From IMG/VR virus record IMGVR_UViG_3300024329_000007, positions 15,937-79,936 of that record: a stretch of 64,000 bases of DNA; one strand, 5' to 3'. Below are positions 7,939 through 13,583 of this stretch, piece by piece. Source of the stretch: a virus. The position numbers and the translations under genes were made by a program. The notes beneath the pieces are model-generated. The model was not told the DNA's origin, did no database searches, and worked only from the letters and a program-made list of their open reading frames with translations. Each line of letters opens with the position of its first letter. Position 1 is the first letter of the stretch.

Positions 7939-8334
7939 TTATTTAAGTTTTTTTAATATACCGTCTATTTCTGTATATGAGCAATTTGCACCCTTAACTA
8001 TAAATGATCCATAAGAGATTGAAAGGTTTGCACCTTCACCTCCAGTTTTTACTTGAGTTTTATATGCTTCTTCTATAGATGCTTGATCTTCAGCAACAGC
8101 AACAACTTTAGGTCTAAATCCAGCGCCTACATTATGATCGTCTAAAGATCTTAAATGCATTTGTTCTCCATTAACTTCTACTGTATTATGTAGTATTAAT
8201 GCAAAGTGGGTTTCACCCTTACCAGGTAAATCAAAACCATCAAATGCATATTTGCTAAAATAATATGATCCGAATTTTATTTTTTCATTTACTAAACTAT
8301 TAGTAAATTCTCCAAATGTTTTTGTATTTTTCAT
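7939..8334 (-). CDS. Hypothetical protein with capsid-targeting-like leader
   Basis: Begins MKNTKTFGEFTNSLVNE. Confidence 0.65.
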   Translation of the reverse strand: MKNTKTFGEFTNSLVNEKIKFGSYYFSKYAFDGFDLPGKGETHFALILHNTVEVNGEQMHLRSLDDHNVGAGFRPKVVAVAEDQASIEEAYKTQVKTGGEGANLSISYGSFIVKGANCSYTEIDGILKKLK

Positions 8335-11510: not shown

Positions 11511-13583
11511 TTATGCTAGTGATGATTGTAAAATTCCTGCACATTTTCCGTAGTCACCATCGCATTTTTTTAATATGCCGGCAACAACCTCGTCTGCTTT
11601 AGCCTCATCAAATTCTTCTCCAAAAGCTTTTTGTAATACTTCGTATGCGTATTCTTTAAAATCTTCTTCAGATTTAATTTCAGCCTCGTTTACAGATTCA
11701 AAAAGAGAATTAAAATCATCTAATAAAGATTGTCCCATTCTTTCTTCTTTAAGCTCTTGTAAAAATAGAGCAGTTCCTTCAACAATCCCTTGGCCAGACC
11801 ATCCTGCCGCATTAGCGATATCTGAATAGTATTTGTCTAGAATCCTTTTTAAAGTAGTAGTTCCTAGTTTTACAAAGTGTCCACCTAGACCTGGTAACTT
11901 AATCTCTAAAGCCGCCATTTTACCTTTAATGTTTCTAGAAACAATTTTTTCTCTATGGAAGTTAGCGTCTGTCATTGCTTCTTCAAAAAGATATTTAACA
12001 CAACCTCTAATAGACTCATGAGACATTGCACCAAAATCTGGTAAAGTCTTATAGAATATTTTCTTATATTGTGTAACTACCTTTTTAGCATCTCTTTTGC
12101 CGTCAACTTTAATAGCTTCATTAACTACTGATTCATTGCACATTGAAACTAATTCTTGTGCAATCTTTTTTGCTTTAGAACCTTTATGTCCATAAGATTC
12201 AACTGTATCTAAAGCATCTTCCATTTCCATGCCATGTAATTCTCCCATGTCTCCTCCTCTTTCATCTAAAAGATCCTGTAAGATATTTTCAGCTTCTGAT
12301 TCATTAACTACTGATTCAAAATAATCTTCATAGTCAGAGATTGAGTCTGGTCCCCATACATCAGCTAAAACTTTTTCGATATCTTCTCTTTTACCGGTTA
12401 ATTTAACTTCTGGGTAACCGTGGTCACCTTCTTCTTTTTGAACTTTCATTTTAACTTTATTCTTCTTTAAAGATGTAGTTAAGGGTTTAAATTTAGTTGG
12501 GTGTATATCGTCATCGTTTCCAAATTCTATACCCGAAAGAGATGTTTCATTAACAACTGATTCAAAGGTTGATGATGGCATTAGTTCTTTATCGCCATAT
12601 ATGTCTGCTACCAACCAATTTTTATTCTCTTCATCCCATAAATAAACCCACTCAGCGCCGGCTCCATTTGAAACATCATTTAAATATTGGTCTACTTTTT
12701 TATATTGTCCTGTTGTTTGCATGTCACCGCTTTCACCACGATCTCTTCCGTAAAAAATAGTATAACCTCTAGTCGGATTAGAAAAACTATGTTTCTTACC
12801 TATTGATTTATCTAAAAATGAAATACCAGCCTTTCCTAATTTCATTAATTGCTTAATGTCACTTTCGCTATATCCTTTTAACATTGGTAGCATGTGCTCT
12901 GGGTAACCATCAGAATGTACGTATGTTGATGTGATTTTACCACTCTTACTAAGAATACCAATTTGAGATCTAGTTGATTCGTTAACCGCAAGCGACTCAA
13001 ATGCTGGAACTAACTCTGCGTTTCCGTCTACATGTAGCATATACCATTTACCATCTCGCTCGTCAAAAAGATAAACATATTCTGCCCAACCAATATCTTC
13101 TAGATATTTAGACATGTTTTTAATCTTTCCTTTTTGATTTTCCATGTCGCCATAGTAATTCATATACCTTGGGTCTTCTTCTAATCCAGAGCTACCTCCA
13201 TTTTTAAGAACCATGTTTAGTGGCGAACCACCCTTTAAATATGTCATCTTAATAAGTGGTAACATTGCTTCTGGATAAGAATCAGCATGTGTGTATACAC
13301 TTTCTATATTACCTCTTTTGTCTATTTTACCAAAATGGCCTCTAGTGGCTTCTGTTAGTAATAAAATAGACTCATTAAGGCCTAAATTTTTTAACTTGTC
13401 AAAAAATTCAAATCTTTTTTCTTCTTCTAATTCTTTTATTCGAGTTACTCCATATTCAGATAAAAGTTCTTTAAATAGATCTGCTTCGTTAGATCTTTTA
13501 GCGTTCTGTTTTTTCTCTAATGCAACAGTATCTTTTTCATGTTTTGCTGCAGAAAATTCAGCAAATGAATTTAATTTCTTCAT
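11511..13583 (-). CDS. Modular polyprotein-like internal head protein (about 7 modules)
   Basis: Leader MKKLNSFAEF; junctions LLLTE, FESLAVNE, FESVVNE (x2), NESVVNE, FESVNE; tandem duplicated HxD(G/S)YP domain. Confidence 0.6.
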   Translation of the reverse strand: MKKLNSFAEFSAAKHEKDTVALEKKQNAKRSNEADLFKELLSEYGVTRIKELEEEKRFEFFDKLKNLGLNESILLLTEATRGHFGKIDKRGNIESVYTHADSYPEAMLPLIKMTYLKGGSPLNMVLKNGGSSGLEEDPRYMNYYGDMENQKGKIKNMSKYLEDIGWAEYVYLFDERDGKWYMLHVDGNAELVPAFESLAVNESTRSQIGILSKSGKITSTYVHSDGYPEHMLPMLKGYSESDIKQLMKLGKAGISFLDKSIGKKHSFSNPTRGYTIFYGRDRGESGDMQTTGQYKKVDQYLNDVSNGAGAEWVYLWDEENKNWLVADIYGDKELMPSSTFESVVNETSLSGIEFGNDDDIHPTKFKPLTTSLKKNKVKMKVQKEEGDHGYPEVKLTGKREDIEKVLADVWGPDSISDYEDYFESVVNESEAENILQDLLDERGGDMGELHGMEMEDALDTVESYGHKGSKAKKIAQELVSMCNESVVNEAIKVDGKRDAKKVVTQYKKIFYKTLPDFGAMSHESIRGCVKYLFEEAMTDANFHREKIVSRNIKGKMAALEIKLPGLGGHFVKLGTTTLKRILDKYYSDIANAAGWSGQGIVEGTALFLQELKEERMGQSLLDDFNSLFESVNEAEIKSEEDFKEYAYEVLQKAFGEEFDEAKADEVVAGILKKCDGDYGKCAGILQSSLA
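12115..12566. repeat. Three in-frame direct repeats encoding ESVVNE
   Basis: tcattaac(t/a)actgattca at about 12118, 12301 and 12547; nearly the same DNA as the KESVVTEAK repeats at 6.5-7.4 kb. Confidence 0.85.

Follow-up and report, generated by a model that had tools for sequence, protein, structure and literature searches.

Why does a domain that phages otherwise encode as a gene of its own lie twice within one long ORF, each time beginning directly after a glutamate? The ORF in question, P0001, specifies 690 amino acids and lies in a stretch of 64,000 nucleotides, here called the window, from a 79.9-kb IMG/VR record (IMGVR_UViG_3300024329_000007) that is ∼27% complete. We consider it probable, with a good deal of room for doubt, that the ORF encodes a virion-cargo polyprotein that is cut after Glu, which would restore the first residue that the domain may require. 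Its parts, in window coordinates, are as follows.

11511..13583, minus strand: the 690-aa ORF, a candidate cargo polyprotein composed of a leader and six modules with hydrophobic-x-Glu junctions.
13350..13583, minus strand: leader, residues 1–78, beginning MKKLNSFAEF and finishing LLLTE.
13350..13352, minus strand: Glu78 codon, predicted P1 of the junction before module 1.
12978..13349, minus strand: module 1, residues 79–202, a PHROG_1987-type domain with A-T-R-G directly after L-L-T-E.
12978..12980, minus strand: Glu202 codon, predicted P1 of the junction between modules 1 and 2.
12546..12977, minus strand: module 2, residues 203–346, a PHROG_1987-type domain with S-T-R-S directly after A-V-N-E.
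12546..12548, minus strand: Glu346 codon, predicted P1 of the junction after module 2 (FESVVNE, then T).
11514..12545, minus strand: four downstream modules, residues 347–428, 429–489, 490–633 and 634–690, with (F)ESV(V)NE junctions.

The junctions after residues 346, 428, 489 and 633 are near-identical, each a form of (F)ESV(V)NE, and in a six-frame translation of the window the VNE-type motif was nearly exclusive to this ORF. The leader holds additional candidate sites after E33 and E71, and BLAST segments show it to be common to P0003, P0005, P0093 and P0045. A Pfam search of the ORF found no domain at E < 0.07, and no peptidase domain.

The original prediction, made from the letters of the window, had described two tandem paralogous modules at 12547–13349, a range that proved right within one base. 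Modules 1 and 2 share 34% identity (BLASTP E = 1e-19), and each is matched over the full length of the domain HMM (model positions 1–122), at E = 3.3e-20 and E = 2.1e-43 respectively. Module 2 carries the full motif set, TR, YxHxDGYP, YGRDRGE and AEWVYLWD..W; module 1 has all core motifs (T-R, Y-x-H-x-D-G-Y-P, E-[YW]-x-Y-L...W) except YGRDRGE. The two are placed in different subclades of the tree and therefore do not reflect a recent tandem duplication. The nearest relative of module 1, at 69% identity, is P0093. In the closest relatives, P0002 and P0003, an orthologue of module 2 directly follows the leader and module 1 is absent.

The free-standing family starting M-[SGA]-T-R, to which the original prediction had referred, exists: it is PHROG_1987, whose profile matches ORF residues 203–333 at positions 2–122 of 128 (E = 1.3e-24). 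Matches to two smaller PHROGs likewise begin at profile position 2. An exhaustive search of 1.84 billion representative proteins gave 2086 relatives at E < 1e-3, and tblastn with a free-standing member gave 151 GenBank phage records, spread over T4-like cyanophages, vibriophages, Rak2-like jumbo phages, Caulobacter phages and Streptococcus suis prophages; a word-indexed protein search returned 11 near-length relatives only. Known members are free-standing genes of 120–170 aa, for example S-PM2d016 (‘T4-like GC 66’), CBB_356 and CcrColossus gp083. They have the N-terminal T-R, Y-x-H-x-D-G-Y-P and E-Y-x-Y-L...W in common with the modules of the ORF, but here the domain is embedded, and twice, once without YGRDRGE. 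The free-standing homologue L094 of Streptococcus phage phi-SsuNJ5_rum (30598–30942) occupies a moron-like position, with terminase genes and a toxin–antitoxin pair on one side and the portal gene on the other.

Neither Pfam nor NCBIfam has a family for either module or for the free-standing relatives, and Pfam found no peptidase or other domain in ten related polyproteins and free-standing members. PDB sequence searches, with a single protein or a profile, returned nothing significant, and the ESM Atlas yielded unnamed viral clusters only. Searches for related loci with single-protein queries found none; a narrower alignment gave the IMG/VR loci considered below. Biochemically, the domain is probably an early-acting effector that possibly binds nucleic acid or nucleotides.

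We then asked how the domain begins wherever it occurs. Copies were anchored by the domain HMM and the residues preceding model position 1 were tabulated. The best 150 of the 2086 homologues contained 159 copies with a complete N-terminal alignment; six partial domain hits were either the latter parts of matches split in two or came from truncated ORFs. The contexts were:

Met followed by the domain: 60 of 159 copies.
Met directly before the domain, with a dubious upstream start: 2 of 159 copies.
Short leader (12–54 residues) ending in Glu: 21 of 159 copies.
Within a longer protein, with Glu immediately before the domain: 76 of 159 copies.
Any other N-terminal context: 0 of 159 copies.

The original prediction had proposed such an HMM-based tabulation of the distance from the initiator Met to TR, and among these 159 copies from the best 150 of 2086 homologues there was no N-terminal extension without a Glu. 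It had also stated, correctly, that both copies in the 690-aa ORF begin exactly after Glu (L-L-T-E/A-T-R and A-V-N-E/S-T-R, with the slash marking the junction). In the tree, free-standing copies form one clade (support 97) with a few extended copies nested inside, and at least two to four switches between free and extended forms are needed. Because the N-extended copies fall into a few clades only, some of them nested in this way, copy counts do not represent independent events; read accordingly, Glu occupies position –1 in 97/97 extended copies, P3 is I, L or V in 88 of 91, and P1′ is G in 63, S in 17 and A in 11. Glu was likewise at –1 in 80/80 IMG/VR loci, a set that was collected with patterns excluding the Glu and that may overlap with the database set.

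Free-standing copies start M-[S/A/G]-T-R, with residue 2 being S in 32, A in 18 and G in 10. The initiator Met is normally removed by methionine aminopeptidase before S, A or G, and therefore a chain cut after Glu and a chain that has lost its Met would share the mature start [G/S/A]-T-R. The GenBank records show the same boundary: the alignment begins at query residue 1 in all 60 rows sampled across the 151-record ranking. In CBB_356, CcrColossus gp083 and EniLVp02_0185 the equivalent of S203 occupies position 2 in the annotated CDS, and in S-PM2d016 and an S. suis prophage gene the annotated CDS start is the start of the match from the query Met.

Three asymmetries in these sequences argue for a constraint that would be specific to the N-terminus. 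The spacing from Glu to the domain is always 0, whereas mostly 11–27 residues separate its C-terminal end from the Glu site that follows. Thirteen multidomain proteins (191–680 aa) consist of Met, the domain and further sequence free of Glu junctions, and the domain comes first in 13/13. Finally, the second copy in P0062 is the only internal copy that lacks T-R, and it has lost the His too.

Several of those 13 proteins have a different repeated linker, [F/Y/M]-A-[K/T/E]-G-G. In the long proteins P0039, P0091, P0114, P0116, P0131 and P0146, a PHROG_1987 domain of the free-standing type at residue 2 is accompanied by unrelated modules between such repeats, and two of these proteins end in a hydrophobic tail. 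Possibly these form another class of polyprotein, whose site would be of the Gly-Gly type.

Conservation within the domain was compared with its predicted structure. Among the 159 copies, T2 is present in 157, R3 in 151, Y19 in all 159, H21 in 157 and D23 in 153. YGRDRGE is kept in all 62 free-standing copies and lost in 51/97 N-extended ones, including module 1, which belongs to the subfamily without it; all but one of these 51 still have T2, R3, H21 and D23. An AlphaFold2 model of module 2 (144 residues, alpha/beta, built from a 58-sequence alignment) had a pLDDT of 94.6 and a pTM of 0.89, with a mean of 95 over the first ten residues. Strands 4–9 and 14–22 form the first hairpin in this model. 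Judged from the strand register, T2 would lie opposite H21 and share a face with Y19 and D23, and the match between T2/R3 conservation and the hairpin thus makes the N-terminal T-R part of the predicted invariant core. The original prediction had allowed that the N-terminus might turn out to be distant from the conserved residues; in the predicted hairpin, T2 and R3 adjoin the Y-x-H-x-D strand. The need for a free N-terminus that it proposed has therefore gained part of its footing, in the conservation of T2 and R3 beside that strand, while the requirement that the domain begin its chain is plausible, not proven.

The fold itself gave little further guidance. Foldseek against the PDB returned no match below E = 0.2, and BFVD yielded uncharacterised phage proteins only. 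The best VIA-align Z was 4.3, with most top rows being Brix or class II tRNA-synthetase anticodon-binding-like alpha/beta domains; such a fold is consistent with the model, but a Z of at most 4.3 is too weak for it to be claimed.

The reading that we prefer runs as follows. An uncultivated T4-like jumbo phage would encode, in the 690-aa ORF, a virion-cargo polyprotein in which a leader is followed by six small modules at [I/L/V]-x-Glu junctions. A prohead protease of the T4 gp21 type (S77) would cut after each Glu, releasing PHROG_1987 modules that start A-T-R and S-T-R, and the free-standing M-[S/A/G]-T-R relatives would reach the same start through removal of the initiator Met. In T4, a change of the Glu to Asp is reported to prevent processing. 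The rule for the family would then be that residue 1 of the domain is residue 1 of the chain. As to why, we infer that T2, R3 and perhaps the free amino group, at the head of the domain, likely pack on the Y-x-H-x-D-G-Y-P strand to form the conserved site, which any residues added in front would obstruct or distort.

A more specific version of this scheme, which we hold only tentatively, takes PHROG_1987 to be an effector in which the alpha-amino group, Thr2, Arg3, His21 and Asp23 make up the conserved site and which is latent until prohead cleavage. If the site needs a free N-terminus, embedding behind Glu would therefore keep the domain latent, in a zymogen-like state, in the producing cell; the capsid protease would activate it in the prohead and it would act in the next host. 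In other phages, the free-standing copies would be active once made.

The exact junction might instead be an accident of history, an explanation to which we give about the same modest credence as to latency. Free-standing genes would have been captured at their start codons into cassettes; cleavage would still occur, but an extension would be tolerated. The small second residue would already have fitted the P1′ preference, and the junction would then have travelled with the cassette. The polyproteins do have the mosaic structure that this explanation calls for. When the 690-aa ORF was compared by BLAST with other polyproteins, the ends of the matching segments were the Glu junctions, and its downstream modules recurred in other polyproteins in a different order, residues 490–633, 347–428 and 429–489 at varying positions. 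More than 20 other polyproteins have a counterpart of residues 634–690 (window 11514–11684) at their very C-terminus (55–87% identity), and residues 429–489 (window 12117–12299) are 97% identical to a module in P0079. These two similarities indicate recent cassette exchange, with possibly a conserved C-terminal function.

Capture at the start codon also accords with the few switches (two to four) that the tree needs between free and extended forms, and with the small P1′ residues (T, S, A, A) at the other junctions of the same ORF. It leaves unexplained, however, why 62/62 free-standing copies have no extension and only S, A or G at position 2, why the domain comes first in multidomain proteins that lack Glu junctions, why indels occur on its C-terminal side and never on the N-terminal side, and why T2 and R3 equal the H-x-D motif in invariance.

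Both the preferred reading and the historical one suppose that the junctions are cut. Were they not, the protein would be one multidomain chain in which the Glu repeats are structural or recombination linkers, and we regard this as improbable. In its favour is the position of the ORF, whose neighbours encode a UvsW-type helicase, a primase, a gp32-like protein and a RuvC-like protein; a place amid replication genes, not head genes, counts against virion cargo. The frequency in the window of the T4 late-promoter consensus, TATAAATA, was not above chance, and neither was that of the motif GGATATATA found upstream of the 690-aa ORF; we therefore make no claim on expression timing. For the linker before the junction that follows module 2 (...STFESVVNE, model residues 135–143), the model predicts a helix (pLDDT ∼86) continuing right up to the Glu; a protease would therefore find little disordered spacer, which again counts against cleavage. 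Elsewhere in the window, a 131-aa ORF (7939–8334, minus strand) has a leader ending ...FGEFTNSLVNE/K, the same junction type as in the polyprotein.

Against an uncleaved chain stands first the motif itself: T4 gp21 cuts after Glu in L/I-x-E (PMC9026906), which fits the Glu at –1 and the I, L or V at –3. Relatives also encode the enzyme. A Peptidase_S77 (T4 gp21) match above the Pfam cut-off was present in 5/5 large contigs that carry Glu-junction copies, and the same 5/5 contigs encode a gp23-type capsid protein. In four of the five, a UvsW helicase is 69–84% identical to that of the window; in contig G005 the span of polyprotein locus L022 includes its gene, which is near the polyprotein there, just as it is in the window. 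The 79.9-kb record that contains the window is only ∼27% complete and has no S77 protease gene, which weighs against our preferred reading.

The gp23-type capsid proteins of relatives (L090, L092, L093) open with the junction motif, MAQLINE/AEIR or ..MANLINE/AEIR, and their capsid propeptide may thus be very short. The 690-aa ORF starts MKKLNSFAEF and one of the short-leader relatives MKNIKLFEEFINE...; such starts may resemble the leader of T4 IPIII. The forms composed of a short leader and the domain resemble T4 internal-protein precursors, and an uncleaved chain would also place internally a domain that is intolerant of N-terminal extension elsewhere. On this evidence, the original suggestion that the junction supports proteolytic processing has been strengthened by the invariant Glu at –1 (97/97 and 80/80) and the S77 protease of relatives; processing at the Glu junctions is well supported by comparison, if indirectly and without being proven, and the products would be packaged and injected.

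The original prediction had offered Ntn-type catalysis as the reason for a free N-terminus, with the new N-terminal residue acting as nucleophile. A [G/S/A]-Thr sequence resembles the self-processing sites of some Ntn hydrolases. An Ntn-type enzyme, released by cleavage or by self-processing between [G/S/A] and Thr, is nevertheless very improbable, and we reject membership of that class: Thr2 is nearly invariant and the hairpin register would put the N-terminus beside the conserved His and Asp, but residue 1 varies (of 159 copies, 76 have Gly and 51 Ser, with Ala in most others) and, being mostly Gly or Ala, cannot be a conserved nucleophile, self-processing would tolerate propeptides of any length and none was seen among the 159 copies, and no Ntn hydrolase, with the four-layer alpha-beta-beta-alpha fold of that class, was among the Foldseek or listed VIA-align matches. 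Thr2 or the free amino group may still have a part to play.

If the junctions are cut, a single gene would let uncultivated T4-like jumbo phages fill the capsid with several small proteins unrelated to one another, and the sites, being readable from sequence alone, would yield a catalogue of candidate injected effectors. The N-terminal rule is an unusually clean comparative signal; it ties a widespread phage family to a testable structural requirement and highlights T2, R3, H21 and D23 as candidate key residues.

The closest parallel is with the internal proteins of T4. There, ten-residue N-terminal leaders direct internal proteins into the head (PMC9026906), and those that are injected are anti-restriction factors (PMC9026906, PMC3012670, PMC12373910). 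IPI, IPII, IPIII and Alt have in common with the 690-aa ORF an N-terminal leader, an L/I-x-E cut, predicted in our case, and a small P1′ (PMC9026906, PMC12373910). In both, the cargo is unrelated and fast-evolving, and the relatives of the present ORF have the S77 protease and the gp23-type capsid. The ORF differs in that it joins several unrelated modules, with repeated internal sites and cassette shuffling; its leader is 78 residues long rather than 10, and it is known from its sequence.

Other systems are more distant. In the giant phages phiKZ, 201phi2-1 and SPN3US, many head proteins are cut after Glu and cargo is ejected (PMC9026906, PMC5694885, PMC10052503), but the phiKZ protease motif is S/A-x-E, unlike the junctions here, and the head proteins are usually trimmed or fragmented and are not described as strings of domains that also occur free-standing. 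Polyvalent proteins likewise combine many effector domains that are delivered together with DNA, and processing into units has been proposed for them (Iyer et al., 2017; PMC5512222); that processing is thought to be due to a built-in zincin-like peptidase, whereas the ORF described here has none and its sites fit a capsid protease. With Ntn hydrolases the domain would share a precisely placed N-terminus made by processing, but they have a conserved nucleophile (Thr, Ser or Cys) at residue 1, and the domain has neither this nor a match to their fold. A leader followed by a gp21-type site was thus already known from T4; what is new is the format, in which several cargoes are strung together as cassettes, and the N-terminal rule of PHROG_1987.
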